A DNA stretch of 64,000 bases from Acidithiobacillus sp. (GCF_049965315.1 NZ_JBMFWL010000003.1:15716-79715), one strand, 5' to 3'; positions 3,559 through 62,991 are shown, numbered from the stretch's first letter. Program-made: numbers and translations. Notes: a model not told the origin generated them from the letters alone.

Positions 3559-3645
3559 GCCGAGGTGGCGGAATTGGTAGACGCGCTAGGTTCAGGTCCT
3601 AGTGGGCGAAAGCTTGTGCTGGTTCGAGTCCAGTCCTCGGTACCA
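3559..3645 (+). tRNA. tRNA-Leu(CAG), class II, CCA encoded
   Basis: GCCGAGG acceptor pairing with CCTCGGT, anticodon stem CTAGG/CCTAG around loop TTCAGGT (anticodon CAG), long variable arm, T arm GGTTCGAGTCC, discriminator A, CCA. Confidence 0.95.
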
Positions 3646-6274: not shown

Positions 6275-7146
6275 TTCCCCGCCGCCCCCAGGGTATGCCG
6301 GAAGTATTTGAAGAACGGCGAGTCGGGGTTGAGCACCAGGACATCTTTTCCGCCCAGACTCTGCCGATAGGCCTCCAGACTACGATAGAAGGAAAAGAAG
6401 GCCGGATTTTTACCGTAGGCCTGGCCGTAGATATTGCCCGCTTCCGCGTCGCCCTGACCTTTCAACTCCTCCACCTGACGATAGGCATCGGCCAGGATCT
6501 GGGTCTTCTCCTTGTCCGCCTGGGCACGAATCTCCGCTGCCGCTTCGGCGCCGCGGGAGCGATACTCATTGGCTTCCTGGGTACGTTCCGCCTCCATCCG
6601 CTTGTACACGGCCTGGAGGACTTCCGGCGGCAGACCTACCTGCAGGATGCGCACGTCCACCAGTTGGATGCCCAAGGCCTGGAGGCGCTGATTGGCGCTG
6701 GCGAGGACGGGGTCGATCATTTGCTTGCGATTGCCGGTAATGACCGCCTCCAGCGGCATCTTGCCCACCTCCCCGCGCAGGAAGGAGCGGACAATATCAC
6801 CGATGCGGGCCTGGGCAGTGGCGGCGTTACGCACGCTGGTATAAAAAACCAAAGGCTTGGTGATCCGCCATTCGGCATAAAAATCCACCAGGACCGGCTT
6901 CTTCTCCACGGTCAGATAAGACTCTGGCTGGGTGCTATAGCTGGCCAGGCGCTTATCCAGGAAGATCACGTCCTGAACCAGGGGCCACTTGAAATACAAA
7001 CCGGGTTGTTCCACCACGCGCACGGGCTTGCCAAACTCCAGCACCACCGCGCTCTGGGTCATGCGGACGGTATAAAAACTGGCGGACACCAGGAGCAGTA
7101 TGCCCAGGAGGACCAGCATGCCTACGCTCCAGCCGGCATTTTTCAT
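6271..7146 (-). CDS. hflC: Protease modulator HflC (SPFH/band-7)
   Basis: 291 aa with an N-terminal TM segment and an SPFH domain (YTVRMTQSAVVLEFGKP..., EAERTQEANEYRSRGAE). 4-nt overlap with the hflK stop. Confidence 0.9.
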
Positions 7147-19752: not shown

Positions 19753-19866
19753 TGGCGACGCCAATCAGCCACACCCCGGCACCTGGATCGGTGGCTGCCG
19801 CTGCTCCCTTCCGGGCCTGACGGGGTTCACCACTTACCACTGCGAGGGGACCGATTATTGTCGCCA
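19753..19866 (-). ncRNA. ffs: Signal recognition particle RNA (4.5S-type)
   Basis: The minus strand contains GUCAGGCCCGGAAGGGAGCAGC, which corresponds to the conserved helix-8 GUCAGG...GGAA...AGCAGC motif. The closing helix is UGGCGAC / GUCGCCA plus AAUCGG / CUGAUU. The length is 114 nt, as in E. coli 4.5S. Typical position just upstream of dnaX. The ends are approximate. Confidence 0.75.
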
Positions 19867-20144: not shown

Positions 20145-20233
20145 TGGCGGAGAGGGTGGGATTCGAACCCACGTGGCGTTGCCGCCCATCCGATTTCGAG
20201 TCGGCGCCGTTATGGCCACTTCGGTACCTCTCC
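20145..20233 (-). tRNA. tRNA-Ser(CGA), class II, CCA encoded
   Basis: The minus strand reads GGAGAGG...GACTCGAAATC (loop CUCGAAA, anticodon CGA)...long variable arm...GGGTTCGAATCCCACCCTCTCCGCCA. Discriminator G. Confidence 0.9.
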
Positions 20234-45525: not shown

Positions 45526-45720
45526 CTAGGGGCGAGGCGGAAGGATCTCTCTGACCGGCAGCTTGGCGTTGGCCGGGTTGCTCCTGGCTGCCGCTACCGC
45601 CTCATCGCGGGTCGCATGCTTGGAGAAGCCGTAGATCACGCCGGCATCGCGGCTCACCCGGAACTTCCAGAGTGGCGCGCCGTTCATTTTGACCGGATAA
45701 ACTTCGATGCAGGATTCCAT
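45526..45720 (-). CDS. Small hypothetical protein, possibly a single YegP/DUF1508-like domain
   Basis: ATG 45720 is preceded by GAGAGGAAACC. 64 aa. WKFRVSRDAGVIYGFSKHATRDEAVAAARSN resembles the FRFxLKAxNGExI..S..Y.S...A..GI.SV..N repeat of YegP. This assignment is tentative. Confidence 0.4.
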   Translation of the reverse strand: MESCIEVYPVKMNGAPLWKFRVSRDAGVIYGFSKHATRDEAVAAARSNPANAKLPVREILPPRP

Positions 45721-45822
45721 GGTTTCCTCTCTATCGTGATCGTCGACTTTGACGCCGGATAAGACCAAAGACAAGCGTTGCGCAGAAACAGCAAACAACA
45801 TCAACAGGATACAACGAATGAA

Positions 45823-46121
45823 TGGCGGAGGCGGTGAGATTCGAACTCACGAGGGGCGCGAACCCCTGCCGGTTTTCCGTACCACTATGGCTTTCGCCAC
45901 CAGCCACGCTGTTTGCGGTCTGGATCATGCCTTCGCCATAGCCAATGGCCTTAGGCGGGAACCGTCTGATCTCTACACCTTCCGGCGGCGCCGGCTTGGC
46001 TCGGCGTTACCTCGCTGGTCCGCAGGGGCTTCGCCGAATTTGATTCCTGACACCCGGAGGGTTTCCCCCCCGGGGCTCGATGGGACAAGACCGGTGCAAT
46101 CAACCACTCTGCCACACCTCC
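45823..46121 (-). tRNA. tRNA-Ser(UGA), split gene: exon 1 at 46121..46087, group I intron, exon 2 at 45877..45823
   Basis: Exon 1 reads GGAGGTG-TG-GCAG-AGTGGTTGA-TTGC-A-CCGGT-CTT. Exon 2 reads GAAA-ACCGG-CAGGGGTTCGCGCCCCTC-GTGAG-TTCGAAT-CTCAC-CGCCTCC-G-CCA. Joined, they give a 90-nt class-II cloverleaf with anticodon loop CUUGAAA (UGA), a long variable arm and a G73 discriminator. Confidence 0.8.
45878..46086 (-). ncRNA. Group I self-splicing intron (IC3, Azoarcus-like), 209 nt, no ORF
   Basis: The internal guide GAG (intron nt 9-11) pairs with exon CUU, giving U.G at the 5' splice site, and the terminal nucleotide is G. P2 is CCCGGGGGG-GAAA-CCCTCCGGG, and P4 is UUCGGCG/CGCCGAG. The blocks CAAAUUCGGCGAA, AACGCCGAGCCAAGC, GAAGGUGUAGAGA, CCUAAGGC and GCUAUGG are identical to the Azoarcus tRNA-Ile intron as I recall it. 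There is an extra P9 extension, CUAUGGC...GGCGAAAGCC-AUAG. Confidence 0.85.
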
Positions 46122-46205
46122 GTTGACGTATTTTATCCGAACTTGGAGCGCGCAGATAGAACCCCGACGGCTTTTCCTGGTCTCATAGAGTCCGGGTTTC
46201 TGGCG

Positions 46206-46312
46206 TTTCCCGGCAGCCGTTATGCTATTGTTGAAGTTGATGGCTGCGGTAAGGGCTTTCGAAAATCTGTGCCTCCATTCCGGAAGTGGAGTGGGGATGT
46301 TTTCCCGGCAGC
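46206..46312 (+). repeat. 12-nt direct repeat TTTCCCGGCAGC (46206-46217 and 46301-46312)
   Basis: Exact 12-mer present twice, 95 bp apart, in the divergent region between the split tRNA-Ser and the membrane-protein gene. Confidence 0.5.
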
Positions 46313-47986: not shown

Positions 47987-49414
47987 TCAAGCCTTCAGCT
48001 TTTCCCGCAACAAGGCATTGACTTGGTCGGGATTGGCCTTGCCCTTGCTGGCCTTCATGACCTGGCCCACAAAGAAGGCCAGGAGCTTGTCCTTGCCCCC
48101 CCGATAATCCGCCACCTGCTGCGGATTCGCTCCAATGATCTCGTCAATGAGACCGGCAATGGCCCCGCTATCGGTGATCTGCCGTAGACCACGGCTAGCG
48201 ATGATGGCGTCCACTTCGCCGCCCTCGGCAAAGATCATCTCAAACAGGTCCTTGGCGATCTTGCCGGAGATGGTTTGGTCGCCAATGCGTTGCAGCAAGG
48301 TACGGAGCTTTTCCGCCGCAACCGGACAGCTTTCCATCTCCAGGCCGGCCTTGTTCAGTGCCCCCAGCAAATCGCCCATGACCCAGTTGGCGGCCATCTT
48401 GGCATCTACCCCCATGGCCACCGTTTCGTAATAGTCGGCCACGGCGCGGCTGGCCGTCAGCACCTCGGCATCGTAGGCCGGCAGGCCATACTGCTGCATG
48501 AAGCGGTCGCGCTTGGCATCCGGCAATTCGGGTAACGACGCCCGTACCGATGCGATGCGCGCCTCGTCAAAAACCAGGGGCAGCAAGTCGGGGTCGGGGA
48601 AGTAGCGGTAATCGTTGGCCTCTTCCTTGCTGCGCATGGAGCGGGTTTCCCCCTTGTTGGCGTCGAAGAGGCGGGTTTCCTGAATGATCTTGCCGCCGCT
48701 TTCGAGGATGTCCCGCTGCCGCTCCATCTCGTATTCGATGGCTTTTTCCAGGAAGCGGAAGGAGTTGAGATTCTTGACCTCCGCACGGGTACCGAAGGGC
48801 GCGCCGGGACGGCGCAGGGAGACATTGGCATCGCAACGAAAGGAACCCTCCTGCATATTACCGTCGCAAATATCCAGATAGCGCACCAGGGCGTGGAGCT
48901 TCTTGAGGTAGGCAACCGCTTCCGCCGGGGAACGCATGTCGGGTTCCGAAACGATCTCCAGCAGCGGCGTACCGGCGCGATTGAGATCGATGCCCGTCTG
49001 CCCGGGAAAGGCCTCATGGAGGGATTTTCCGGCGTCTTCTTCCAGATGCGCGCGGGTAATGCCAACCACCTTTTCCCGACCATCCGCCAAGGCGATGGTC
49101 AACTGGCCCTGGCCGACGATGGGCAATTCATACTGGCTGATCTGATAGCCTTTGGGCAGGTCCGGATAGAAATAATTCTTGCGGGCGAAAACGCTGCGCC
49201 GGTTGATCTGGGCGTTCACCGCCAGACCCAGGGCAATGGCCTTGTCCACTGCCGCGGCGTTGAGCACCGGCAAGGCCCCCGGCAATGCCAGGCAAACGGG
49301 GCAGGTCTGCGTATTGGGCGCGGCGCCGAAGACCGTGGGGCAGGCACAAAAAATCTTGCTGGCCGTATTGAGTTGCGCATGCACCTCAAGGCCGATGACG
49401 ACTTCCCATTCCAT
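47987..49414 (-). CDS. gatB: Asp/Glu-tRNA amidotransferase subunit B
   Basis: Start trimmed to ATG 49414 ([17 protein letters not shown]). [10 protein letters not shown]-terminal YqeY-like tail. Confidence 0.95.
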
Positions 49415-49418
49415 AATG

Positions 49419-50891
49419 CTATTCCTTTGCCGGTGCCAGGGCCGGCCGTTGCCGGTGCCAGTCCGTTTCCTGCTGAAAACGATGGGCCACATTGAGCAGC
49501 AGGCCGTCGGTAAAATAATTGCCCATCAACTGCATGCCGATGGGCAATCCACCCGCGGTGAAACCGCAGGGAATGCTCATGGCCGGGATGCCCGCCAGAT
49601 TCACGGCGATGGTGTAGATATCCGCCAGATACATGGCGACGGGGTCCTGGGCCTTATCCCCCAGGGCAAAGGCCGCCGTCGGCGTGGTGGGCCCGACAAT
49701 GACATCCACCTCGGCAAAGGCCTGGCGGAAGTCCTCGCGAATGAGGCTGCGCACTTGCTGTGCCTTGAGATAATAGGCATCGTAGTAGCCCGCCGAGAGG
49801 ACATAGGTGCCGATGAGGATGCGCCGCCGCACCTCGGCACCAAAACCTTCATAGCGACTGCGCTGGTACAGATCGGTGAGGTCTTCCACGCCGGCGGCAC
49901 GATAGGTGTAGCGAACTCCGTCGAAACGCGCCAGATTGCTGGAGGCCTCGGCCGGCGCCAGGACATAATAGGTGCTCACGGCGTGGGCGTTGTTGGGCAG
50001 ATGGATGGATTTGATCACGGCACCCTGGGCCGCCAGGACGCGGATACCCGCCTCCACCGCGGCCGCCACTTCCGGATCCAGGCCGGCACCGAAAAATTCC
50101 TCCGGGACCCCCACCCGCAGGCCTTGGAGGGGCGCATCCAGGGTAGCCGCAAAGACCCCTGCGGCTTCGGGATGACTGGTCGCATCGCGTGGATCATGGC
50201 CCGCCATCGCTTCCAGCAGCAGCGCGCAGTCTTCCGCCGTCTTCGCCAGCGGACCGCCCTGGTCCAGGCTGGAAGCAAAGGCAATCATGCCGTAACGGGA
50301 CACCCGCCCGTAGGTGGGCTTGATGCCCGTCACCCCGCAAAGGGCCGCCGGCTGGCGGATGGACCCGCCGGTATCGGTTCCGGTGGCCGCCGGCACCAGC
50401 CGTGCGGCCACCGCCGCCGCCGAACCACCGGAGGAGCCCCCCGGCACCCGCTGCAGATCCCAGGGATTATGCACAGCGCCGAAATGGCTTGTTTCATTGG
50501 ACGAGCCCATGGCGAACTCGTCCATGTTGAGCTTGCCCAGCATGACCATGCCGGCAGCCTGCAAACGCTCCACGACGGTGGCATTGTATGGAGCGGTAAA
50601 TCGCTCCAGCATGCGCGAAGCGCAGGTGGTACGCACTCCTGCGGTACAAAAGATGTCCTTGTGCGCCATGGGGATCCCCAACAAGGCCCCCTCCTCCCCC
50701 GCCGCCAGGCGCCCGTCGGCCGCCGCCGCCGCGGCAAGGGCCGCGGCCTCGGTAACGGTGATGAAGGCATTGAGGGCGGGGTTATGGGCCGCCACACGAT
50801 CCAGATAAAAGCGAGCAAGCTCCTGCGCCGAAACCCGGCGGGAGCGCAAGGCGTCGCGGAGTTCCCGCAAGGAAGCTTCACTGAGATCCAC
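49419..50891 (-). CDS. gatA: Glu-tRNA(Gln) amidotransferase subunit A
   Basis: 490 aa. Amidase signature [13 protein letters not shown]...[12 protein letters not shown]. Confidence 0.95.
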
Positions 50892-60815: not shown

Positions 60816-62029
60816 TGCTGTGCTCCGTCGTGCCCGCCCATGCGCCCCTTGGGGTCGATGGCGAAGCGGTCTCCCCGCCAGCGGATCCGTCTGGCAAAAA
60901 GGGCATGAAACCATATTAGCAGGCCCATACCGTCGGCGAGGAAGGCATCGAGCACTCCCTCGGAATTGGTGATCCGCAGTTTTTTCAAGATCGCGTAATG
61001 GTACACGAGGCGCAAGCCCAGGACCACCACTAAAAACACCAGCCCGGGTCCGCCGGCCCCAGGGGCGAGCAGGGCCACGACGGGCAAGGGATAGCTGATG
61101 AAGGCCAGTGTATGGCCCACGGGCTGCACCACCCGCGTGGTCCGCGACCAGCGTAGGGCATGTTGATAAAATGATGAGAAATCAAGCTCATGGACCATGG
61201 TATCCACCACATAGGTAGAAAGCAGGGTGCGCTTTCCCCGGGCACGGCTCAGGGCGCCCAACCGATAGTCATCGGCAAGATGCGCCCCCAGGGCGGCCCA
61301 GCCGCCAATCCCTTCCAGGGTGCCGCGGCGCAGGGCCATGGTCGCCCCGCCGCAGTAAATGGTGGGCCCCAGGCGCGCGGCGACGAGGACCGAGGGCAGG
61401 AAGGACTCGTTGATCTGGGCCGCCAGGATCCATGACCAGAAGCCGGCGACGGGGATGCCCCGGTAGAGGCAGGTCACCACCCCCACCCCATCGTCTTGCA
61501 AAGGCCGACAAATCTCACGCAGGTAATCGCTGCCCACGCGAATGTCGGCGTCGCTGATGACCAGATAATCGTGGCGGCACAAAGCAAGGATGCCGGCGAG
61601 GTTGTTGACCTTGGGATTGCTGCCCACCTTTGCGGCGCTGATGCTTAGGGCGATGCGGAGATCCGGATATTCCCGCCGCAGGCGCTCCACCACCGCGATG
61701 GCCGGGTCCGCCGGATCCTGGACGCCGAAGACGATCTCATAGCAGGGATAATCCTGAGAGCAGAAGCTGCGCAGGTTGTCGTAGAGTCCGGACTCCAGAC
61801 CATGCAAGGGCTTGAGGAGGCTCACGGCCGGCCAGTCTTTATCCGTCTCTCGCTGTGGGGAGGCGGAACGCTGGTCCGAGAGATACGTGTCCACCAGCCG
61901 TGGCCGCCAGCGGGCCAACGCCCACAGGGCGAAGGCCAGATAAGCCAGGGCAGCGGCGCATAGCAACCAAGCCAGCCAATGCCACCAGGGGATCAGTGCC
62001 GTCACAGATAATGATGCTCCCGGAACCAT
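60812..62029 (-). CDS. hpnI: GT2 glycosyltransferase HpnI
   Basis: 405 aa. N-terminal TM segment, VSLLKPLHG, ISDADIRV (DxD), C-terminal TM segments. The start may be GTG 62005 (GTGA overlap with the hpnA stop). Confidence 0.8.
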   Translation of the reverse strand: MVPGASLSVTALIPWWHWLAWLLCAAALAYLAFALWALARWRPRLVDTYLSDQRSASPQRETDKDWPAVSLLKPLHGLESGLYDNLRSFCSQDYPCYEIVFGVQDPADPAIAVVERLRREYPDLRIALSISAAKVGSNPKVNNLAGILALCRHDYLVISDADIRVGSDYLREICRPLQDDGVGVVTCLYRGIPVAGFWSWILAAQINESFLPSVLVAARLGPTIYCGGATMALRRGTLEGIGGWAALGAHLADDYRLGALSRARGKRTLLSTYVVDTMVHELDFSSFYQHALRWSRTTRVVQPVGHTLAFISYPLPVVALLAPGAGGPGLVFLVVVLGLRLVYHYAILKKLRITNSEGVLDAFLADGMGLLIWFHALFARRIRWRGDRFAIDPKGRMGGHDGAQQ

Positions 62030-62991
62030 TGCACGGCGTCCCGCAGGGCCTCTTCGGCGGGGCGATGGCGGTAGCCCAGGCAGTTTTCGGCCTTTTCCGA
62101 GGAGAAATACATCTTGTGGGCCGCCATGCGCAGTTCGTCCCTGGTCACCAGGGGAATACCCCGCCCGCGCAGGCGCACCCAGGCTTCGGCACCCCAGGCC
62201 AGGGGATAGAGGGCGCGACGGGGCAGGCGCAACCGCGGTGAGCGGTGGCCGGTGAGGCCGGCAATGCGGGTCAGCATGGCCCCCAGGGGGAGATTGTCTC
62301 CACCGAGAATGTAGCGTTCGCCTAGCACACCTTGCCCAAAGGCCTGCCAGTGCCCCGTGGCCACGTCATCCACATGGACCACATTGAGACCCGTATCGAT
62401 GTAGGCCGGCATCCGCCCCGCCGCAGCGTCCCGCACCATGCGGCCCGTGGGGGTCGGCTTGCGGTCGGCGGGGCCGATGGGGGTGGAGGGGTTGACGATC
62501 ACCGCCGGCAAGCCTTCGGTCGTGCAGAGATTCCGCACCACCTCTTCGGCAAGGAATTTGGAGCGTTTGTAATGGCCGATCATGGTAGCGAGGCTGGAGG
62601 GGGCATTTTCGTCGGCGATCCGCCCATCCGCATAAAAGCCCAGGACCGCCACACTGCTGGTATAAACGATGCGCTCCACTCCGGCCTCCAGGGCAGCGCG
62701 CATGAGACGCTCCGTACCGCCGACATTGGCCGCATACATGGGAGCGGGATCGGGCACCCAAAGGCGATAATCGGCGGCCACATGGAAAAGCCCCTGACAT
62801 CCGGCCACCGCCTGGCCCAGGGATTCCCCATCGCGCAGATCGCCATGCACGACTTCTACATCCATGTCCTCCCAATTGGCGGTATCCGCATCGCGGCGGG
62901 CGAGGACGCGCACTTCCACCCCTTCCGCCAAAAGCCGGCGCAGGACCGCCCCTCCGACAAAGCCCGATGCGCCGGTCAGTAGCGCCTTCAT
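62002..62991 (-). CDS. hpnA: Hopanoid-associated NAD-dependent sugar epimerase/dehydratase
   Basis: The 616-aa track ORF is mostly a spurious extension over hpnG. The real start is ATG 62991 (MKALLTGASGFVGGAVLRRL Rossmann fold). YKRSK catalytic motif. 329 aa. Confidence 0.8.
   Translation of the reverse strand: MKALLTGASGFVGGAVLRRLLAEGVEVRVLARRDADTANWEDMDVEVVHGDLRDGESLGQAVAGCQGLFHVAADYRLWVPDPAPMYAANVGGTERLMRAALEAGVERIVYTSSVAVLGFYADGRIADENAPSSLATMIGHYKRSKFLAEEVVRNLCTTEGLPAVIVNPSTPIGPADRKPTPTGRMVRDAAAGRMPAYIDTGLNVVHVDDVATGHWQAFGQGVLGERYILGGDNLPLGAMLTRIAGLTGHRSPRLRLPRRALYPLAWGAEAWVRLRGRGIPLVTRDELRMAAHKMYFSSEKAENCLGYRHRPAEEALRDAVQWFREHHYL

Follow-up and report, generated by a model that had tools for sequence, protein, structure and literature searches.

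The stretch of Acidithiobacillus sp. DNA analysed here (GCF_049965315.1, NZ_JBMFWL010000003.1:15716-79715; 64,000 nt, hereafter the window) very probably carries a transfer RNA (tRNA) gene for tRNA-Ser(UGA) that is interrupted at U34/G35 by a 209-nt, self-spliced group I intron of the IC3 type without an open reading frame (ORF). An initial annotation of the window had put forward the essentials of this reading, a tRNA-Ser(UGA) split at U34/G35 by a protein-less IC3 intron, and had proposed as checks a match to the Rfam model RF00028, a tRNA call for the spliced product and a search of related genomes for the same or an empty site. The exon call, a covariance model of the intron core, covariation, pairing of the internal guide in P10 and a natural empty site agree with it. 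The element is real but ordinary: an under-annotated IC3 intron of a catalogued kind, in an Acidithiobacillus tRNA-Ser(UGA). Coordinates are collected in Table 1.

The gene was located with ARAGORN. With introns allowed, the program reported a tRNA-Ser(tga) whose 209-nt intron lies at position 36; the 90-mer obtained by removing the intron in silico was again called tRNA-Ser(tga). The two calls show that the coordinates and tRNA halves first proposed are correct and that the spliced product scores as a tRNA. The mature molecule, split in the gene between U34 and G35, is a 90-nt class II tRNA with a long variable arm, G73 and the anticodon UGA, and its predicted spliced junction reads ...CCGGUCUU|GAAAACCGG... 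(the bar marks the junction). In default mode ARAGORN missed the split gene and called only tRNA-Leu(CAG) and tRNA-Ser(CGA) in the window. A few nucleotides upstream of +1, the displayed Ser-type loci carry TAAAAT, TAAACT, TAGACT or TACACT.

Membership in group I was assessed with a core covariance model (R1) spanning P3 to P7' (133 positions, 24 bp), which was built from 38 introns hosted by Leu, Arg, CAU, Thr and Lys tRNAs and contains no Ser-hosted sequence. The model has a single match in the window (minus strand, 45922-46048; 101.7 bits, E=3.4e-24), which spans the model from end to end. The score arises partly by construction because the training introns were retrieved with a motif shared with, or partly derived from, the window. 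The P1-P9 fold was modelled by homology, refined with the published consensus structure and evaluated on 15 distinct Ser-type introns. Standard pairs fill 94.6% of the cells, versus 27-46% when the partners are slid by 1-3 columns; two-sided changes occur at 38 of 63 pairs, and none of 500 shuffles reaches any observed measure, although independent events are fewer than such cell counts imply, since 12 of the 15 aligned sequences belong to one Acidithiobacillus-type clade. The slid-partner control keeps this relatedness and is still decisive for the fold. Compensatory changes were found in each of P2, P3, P4, P5, P6a, P7, P8, P9, P9a and P9b, the two arms of the P3/P7 pseudoknot among them (pairing in P7 is 100%, and three of its six pairs are compensatory); the helices without two-sided changes are the near-invariant P1 and the outer stem of P6, where changes are one-sided. 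The intron has evolved in a manner that preserves its structure.

Read helix by helix, the intron has the hallmarks of a group I ribozyme: the U(-1)-G wobble, omega-G, a P3-P8 core with the P3/P7 pseudoknot, P10 and the match to a bacterial core model. A compact core, the L2 GAAA tetraloop, an 11-nt receptor in P8, the L9b GAAA tetraloop and homology to the Azoarcus intron assign it to the Azoarcus-like IC3 introns, and we infer that L2 docks on the P8 receptor. The guide GAG lying 8 nt into the intron (intron nucleotides 9-11), the 9-bp P2 with its GAAA loop and the terminal omega-G, all named in the initial annotation, are seen in the sequence, and the intron is ORF-less as stated there. In P1 the guide forms a C-G pair, a U-A pair and the U34-G wobble, which are invariant in 15/15 Ser-type sequences. 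The adjoining guide C (46079) pairs with intron G+1 as an extension of P1 and then with G35 in P10, where guide U (46080) pairs with A36.

Two details of the fold were revised. P4, first described as 7 bp long, has 6 bp, and the supposed seventh pair is part of P6 (GCC/GGU); this pair and the P5 pair G64-U84 were removed after comparison with the published consensus structure. The stretch of about 58 nt that had been taken for a P9 extension absent from Azoarcus is mostly the ordinary J8/7-P7-P9 region, which is homologous in Azoarcus. The CUAUGGC/GCCAUAG helix proposed within it shows no covariation (there is a single double change, and 415 of 500 shuffles reach the observed pairing) and was rejected; it would, moreover, destroy both P9b and P8 with its conserved CCUAAG...UAUGG receptor. 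An archaeal bulge-helix-bulge intron and a group II intron were considered briefly and set aside because of the complete group I core and the site at 34/35.

The history of the locus was followed through its neighbours. The tRNA gene lies about 1.9 kb from the GatB gene in a gatCAB-linked locus, and the order gatB - orf212 - tRNA-Ser::intron recurs in eight metagenome contigs whose GatB proteins are 71-99% identical. The window GatB is 100% identical to a protein of an 'Acidithiobacillus sp.' metagenome-assembled genome (MAG), 98% identical to the GatB of A. sulfuriphilus and 82-83% identical to those of A. ferrooxidans, A. ferrivorans, A. thiooxidans and others; to judge from its sequence, the window comes from an Acidithiobacillus closely related to A. 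sulfuriphilus. A mechanical call of the GatB ORF (window 47987-49492, minus strand) gives 501 aa, its start lying upstream of that in the 475-aa database proteins. The locus was compared in A. sulfuriphilus, A. ferrivorans and A. thiooxidans, the available A. ferrooxidans contig ending before the tRNA. At the syntenic locus A. sulfuriphilus (CP127527.1) has a 210-nt intron, with 97.7% identity over the gene, and A. ferrivorans (LT841305.1) has a 220-nt intron in the same place. In A. thiooxidans (AZMO01000035.1) the tRNA-Ser(UGA) gene at the syntenic position lacks an intron; it reads ...CCGGTCTT|GAAAACCGG... and is identical to the predicted spliced product at 87 of 90 positions (3 differences). 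This natural empty site confirms the exon boundaries, and the proposed search of related genomes has thus yielded both the intron, in two species, and the empty allele. The intron has persisted vertically at this one locus, and such an allele pair (A. sulfuriphilus and A. ferrivorans with the intron, A. thiooxidans without) could be used to study gain, loss and fitness cost.

Beyond the named species, metagenomes scanned with a Ser-specific pattern gave 16 loci. Each is a class II tRNA-Ser(UGA) gene split at 34/35 by an intron of 206-225 nt, and the tRNA-Ser backbones are of at least four different kinds. These loci also bear on whether the arrangement might be a chance mosaic, in which unrelated tRNA-like fragments flank a structured, GC-rich spacer. 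Such a mosaic would suit the modest minimum-free-energy (MFE) z-score of the intron alone (-2.49; MFE folding alone cannot recover the pseudoknotted core, and the value is uninformative) and the lack of an Rfam match described below. The single core-model match at E=3.4e-24, 16 more Ser(UGA) loci of the same architecture, the exact empty-site allele and the covariation refute it, and we give it no credence.

The guide of these introns is matched to the anticodon of the host. When one genome of each GTDB species was scanned for a core motif, at least 120 loci were found, and hosts were assigned to them by the U(-1)/omega-G rule. Among the GTDB matches listed, the majority are Leu(UAA) genes with the intron at 34/35; Arg(CCU), Arg(UCU) and Thr(GGU) hosts have it at 36/37, CAU tRNAs at 36/37 or 33/34 and what is probably a Lys(UUU) host at 34/35, and there is no Ser host. 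This diversity fits the 21 types tabulated in a preprint (Williams 2020, bioRxiv 10.1101/2020.01.27.920355). One locus from a Coriobacteriia MAG (L035) apparently has C, not U, at -1, and resembles the Leu.3Cg class named in that preprint. Guide dinucleotides were obtained by a simple count and by direct reading, since an automated locator anchored on P2 was too strict and left many cases unresolved. The guide is UC|GAG in 17/17 Ser-type introns and UU|GAG in most Leu(UAA) introns. The dinucleotide and anticodon nucleotides 35-36 are UU and AA in Leu(UAA), UC and GA in Ser(UGA), AC and GU in Thr(UGU), and AG and UU at three Lys(UUU) loci (G-U and A-U pairs). The guide therefore covaries with the host anticodon at two positions, as predicted for a functional P10. 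This tracking of positions 35-36 over four host tRNAs is a compact natural example of a group I intron being retargeted by few changes.

Several observations weigh against a self-spliced group I intron, in addition to the partly built-in core-model score and the clade-dominated cell counts given above. RF00028 (Intron_gpI) of Rfam 15 had no match at the gathering score in the 64-kb window or at E<=10 in 45700-46250, where the only cmscan result was a tmRNA-like (transfer-messenger RNA) partial match on the 3' half of the tRNA. A strict sigma-70 scan found no full consensus promoter for the split tRNA-Ser gene. The tRNA scan covered the 64-kb window, and the same cell may hold a second, intron-less tRNA-Ser(UGA) copy. 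Finally, we infer catalysis and, by homology, the chemical steps of splicing. The RF00028 result is formally negative on the model that had been named beforehand as a refuting check. It is ascribed to a failure of sensitivity because related introns also score below or near the cutoff and because, according to the preprint, none of the Rfam group I seeds is bacterial (Williams 2020). Against a cutoff of 50 bits, control introns of the Azoarcus type, in CAU tRNAs, scored 47-64 bits, those of the Leu(UAA) type 45-46 bits, just below it, and one of the Arg(CCU) type 24 bits. Group I introns of bacterial tRNA genes are a systematic blind spot of RF00028.

The missing RF00028 match would suit, and a gene scan of the 64-kb window would allow, a disabled tRNA, with a decaying intron remnant that no longer splices and UCN decoding supplied by another tRNA-Ser(UGA) copy. 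We consider this highly improbable. Exons and intron alike have been conserved, with compensatory substitutions, among taxa that share only 71-83% identity in GatB; invariance or covariation marks P1, the P10 guide, omega-G and the P7/J8/7 core; and the spliced product is three nucleotides in 90 away from a functional-looking intron-less ortholog. Conservation and covariation of this kind are not expected of a decaying element, and the maintenance of intact exons and a covarying intron over such divergence argues for a spliced, functional gene.

For a self-spliced intron, the following course is proposed. The precursor would be transcribed first, and pairing of the tRNA halves, including the 5-bp anticodon stem, would bring the splice sites together. 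The intron would fold into its P3-P8 and P4-P6 core, with the L2 GAAA docked on the P8 11-nt receptor and the L9b GAAA at the periphery. Pairing of the guide GAG with C32-U33-U34 would place the U34-G wobble at the 5' splice site, where a free guanosine bound in P7 would attack after U34. Omega-G would then enter the G site while the guide UC pairs with G35-A36 (P10), and attack of the U34 3'-OH after omega-G would ligate CUU|GAAA to give the mature 90-nt class II tRNA-Ser(UGA).

Removal in vivo might instead depend on the host, the intron being genuine and requiring a protein cofactor, a chaperone or intracellular conditions. Group I introns often require assistance from proteins in vivo, and the P5 of this intron lacks the 11-nt receptor on which L9 docks in Azoarcus and has a CCCCUG/CGAGG loop in its place, so that tertiary stabilization may differ from that of Azoarcus. 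The intron is, however, compact and GC-rich, has retained the two GAAA tetraloops as well as the receptor in P8, and shares 67.7% identity with the robustly self-splicing Azoarcus ribozyme, and no candidate maturase is encoded within or beside it. We therefore regard dependence on the host as unlikely, if somewhat less so than a disabled tRNA, and prefer autonomous splicing.

Identities over the conserved columns of the core were used to examine the origin of the Ser introns. Ser introns of the Acidithiobacillus type share 90% identity or more, and their nearest non-Ser relatives among the matches listed are Burkholderia Leu(UAA) introns (about 78%). A Ser-hosted intron of another lineage (L137) is 82% identical to Leu- or Lys-hosted introns versus 71% to other Ser-hosted introns. 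The loops of tRNA-Ser(UGA) and tRNA-Leu(UAA) differ at position 35 only (CUU|GAAA versus CUU|AAAA). These simple identities, which are not a phylogeny, suggest that tRNA-Ser(UGA) may have been colonized more than once from the Leu(UAA) pool. A wider proposal, which we hold as possible but rather doubtful, is that the Ser introns arose more than once when Leu(UAA) introns inserted ectopically, through reverse splicing for instance, and were fixed by one U-to-C change in the P10 guide, and that the sole tRNA-Ser(UGA) of the intron-bearing species depends on the ribozyme. If so, splicing would be a potential control point for UCN decoding in intron-bearing Acidithiobacillus, and A. thiooxidans, whose allele lacks the intron, would offer a natural isogenic comparison.

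The classical bacterial hosts of tRNA introns are tRNA-Leu(UAA), tRNA-fMet, tRNA-Ile(CAU) and tRNA-Arg(CCU), and the initial annotation implied that a Ser host was new. The preprint cited above, which describes a scan of 80,413 bacterial genomes and 21 host/site types, includes in its seed alignment Mun3.Ser.3Ug, a tRNA-Ser split after loop nucleotide 3; because of this entry the Ser.3Ug class, host and site alike, was already catalogued, computationally and in a preprint only (Williams 2020). Our literature searches found no paper linking Acidithiobacillus with group I introns; a search on tRNA-Ser, group I introns and bacteria gave nothing relevant, and one with an intron-block string gave irrelevant primers only. 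Knowledge of group I introns in general is unchanged by the finding. Acidithiobacillus is a widely used bioleaching model genus, and neither default tRNA finders nor Rfam detect its split tRNA-Ser(UGA). The blindness of annotation foreseen at the outset is evident from the default ARAGORN run and is acknowledged by the authors of tRNAscan-SE 2.0, which was not designed for group I introns, so that the tRNAs then appear missing (PMC8450103). In A. ferrivorans LT841305.1 (L261) a 74-aa ORF has been called at 6282-6506, on the strand opposite the split tRNA-Ser (6294-6603); this call is probably spurious and fills what looks like a gap.

The same intron lineage was also observed on mobile elements. 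In about 1,265 plasmids of PLSDB, most of them conjugative and from E. coli, Klebsiella or Salmonella, an Azoarcus-like group I intron splits an unannotated tRNA-Leu(UAA) gene at 34/35; pCTX-M3 (NC_004464.2, about 61823-62121; L001 2881-3179) is one example. The split gene adjoins aac(3)-IId, an AAA-ATPase gene, IS26 and ISCfr1, and in pLAO68 (L003) its 3' exon has been removed by IS26; it may be a passenger from the donor genome of the resistance module. In IMG/VR, at least 120 viral or proviral contigs (L140-L259) have introns of the lineage in tRNA genes. The hosts among the matches listed are 68 Leu(UAA) genes split at 34/35, together with CAU, Lys(UUU) and Thr(UGU) tRNAs, and may include host tRNAs at provirus borders. 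A 2014 review placed all phage introns in protein-coding genes (PMC3984707). One viral contig (L250, IMGVR_UViG_3300035698_012970) has a tRNA-like gene of 95 nt with the anticodon UGA, called SeC(tca) (selenocysteine) by ARAGORN, with the intron apparently at 33/34.

Table 1. Features of the split tRNA-Ser(UGA) gene and other RNA genes of the window (positions counted from the first nucleotide of the window).
Feature	Position	Strand	Remarks
Intron-split tRNA-Ser(UGA) gene, complete	45823..46121	minus	299-nt precursor body; ARAGORN with introns allowed
-10-like hexamer TAAAAT	46130..46135	minus	Candidate promoter element; ends 9 nt upstream of tRNA position 1
Exon 1	46087..46121	minus	35 nt; acceptor, D arm, 5' anticodon-stem strand CCGGU, C32 U33 U34 (tRNA nt 1-34)
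Group I (IC3, Azoarcus-like) intron	45878..46086	minus	209 nt, without ORF; G first, G last
Internal guide UCGAG	46076..46080	minus	GAG = 46078-46076; GAG pairs with C32 U33 U34 in P1
P2 hairpin	46053..46074	minus	9 bp; L2 GAAA tetraloop 46065-46062; compensatory changes at 8/9 pairs
P3 5' strand GGAAUC	46042..46047	minus	Partner 45958-45963; two-sided changes at 4/6 pairs, 98.9% paired
P4	46037-46032 / 46006-46001 (46001..46037)	minus	6 bp; encloses P5
P5 hairpin	46009-46029	minus	Within P4; conserved internal loop CCCCUG...CGAGG
P6	GCC 46000-45998 / GGU 45979-45977 (45977..46000)	minus	Encloses P6a; GCG/CGU in Mun3, covarying
P6a hairpin	45994-45982	minus	4/4 pairs compensatory
J6/7 and P7 5' strand	45967..45976	minus	GAGAUCA with bulged A; pairs with 45922-45927; presumed G-binding helix
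P3 3' strand GGUUCC	45958..45963	minus	Covariation
P8 hairpin	45935..45956	minus	11-nt tetraloop-receptor motif CCUAAG...UAUGG; outer and inner helices covary
J8/7 (GAAGGCA) and P7 3' strand (UGAUCC)	45922..45934	minus	Core model, covariation
P9 domain	45881..45919	minus	P9 45919-45915 / 45885-45881; P9, P9a and P9b all with compensatory changes
P9a, small hairpin	45910-45902	minus	Within P9 domain
P9b hairpin	45900-45887	minus	GAAA loop 45895-45892
omega-G, final intron nucleotide	45878	minus	G in 17/17 Ser-type introns
Exon 2	45823..45877	minus	55 nt; G35 A36 A37 A38, ACCGG, 18-nt variable arm, T arm, 3' acceptor strand, G73, CCA
Encoded CCA	45823-45825	minus	
tRNA-Ser(CGA)	20145-20233	minus	Ordinary
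Bacterial small signal recognition particle (SRP) RNA	19760-19856	minus	Ordinary
tRNA-Leu(CAG)	3559-3645	plus	Ordinary

Of the known introns, the experimentally self-splicing 205-nt intron of Azoarcus BH72 (PMC13168695), an IC3 intron in pre-tRNA-Ile(CAU), was compared using the sequence in the Williams 2020 seed alignment. It shares 67.7% global identity with the 209-nt window intron; the Azoarcus intron has been characterized by experiment, whereas that of the window is known from sequence alone. The five blocks quoted in the initial annotation match A. olearius BH72 exactly and correspond to J3/4-P4, P4'-P6, J6/7-P7, the P8 receptor and J8/7. Both introns have GAAA tetraloops in L2 and L9, lie in the anticodon loop and lack an ORF. 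The Azoarcus host is tRNA-Ile2(CAU), split at 36/37, with the 5' exon ending ...CAU and the guide GUG, whereas that of the window is tRNA-Ser(UGA), split at 34/35, with ...CUU and GAG. P3 (GGUGUC/GGCACC in Azoarcus, GGAAUC/GGUUCC in the window) and P7 (GACUA/UAGUC and GAUCA/UGAUC) differ by compensatory changes, and the 11-nt receptor in the P5 of Azoarcus is replaced by the CCCCUG/CGAGG internal loop. After GCUAUGG, Azoarcus has 42 nt (UGAAGGCAUAGUCCAGGGAGUGGCGAAAGUCACACAAACCGG) and the window 58 nt, both comprising J8/7, the P7 3' strand and P9 with a GAAA loop; the sole real addition in the window is the small P9a hairpin (about 16 nt), which the Leu and Arg types have too. The introns end in ...AAACCGG in Azoarcus and ...GGUACG in the window.

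The Leu(UAA) introns ('Leu.3Ug'), known from cyanobacteria and plastids, proteobacteria, acidobacteria, plasmids and viral contigs, are inserted at CUU|N35 as in the window, in agreement with the initial equation of the two sites at 34/35. They share the GAG guide, the organization of P9 and the ...GGUAYG 3' end, but differ in the anticodon (UAA), in a 3' exon that begins with A35, in the P10 guide (UU, not UC) and in the tRNA body. The entry Mun3.Ser.3Ug, as given in the Williams 2020 seed alignment, comes from another organism and has diverged in sequence, including P6 (GCG/CGU versus GCC/GGU in the window), which is why our search patterns did not retrieve it. It has in common with the window intron the tRNA-Ser host, the 34/35 site, U(-1)/omega-G, the UCGAG guide, the P5 motif CCCCUG...CGAGGUAA and the GAAA loops in P2 and P9. 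The loop CUU|GAAA, U(-1)/omega-G, the UCGAG guide and the P5 motif place the window intron in the Ser.3Ug class as that alignment represents it. The P5 loop CCCCUG...CGAGG, common to the Acidithiobacillus-type Ser introns and Mun3, sits where Azoarcus has its 11-nt receptor and is a candidate for another kind of receptor, which might bind the L9b GAAA tetraloop.

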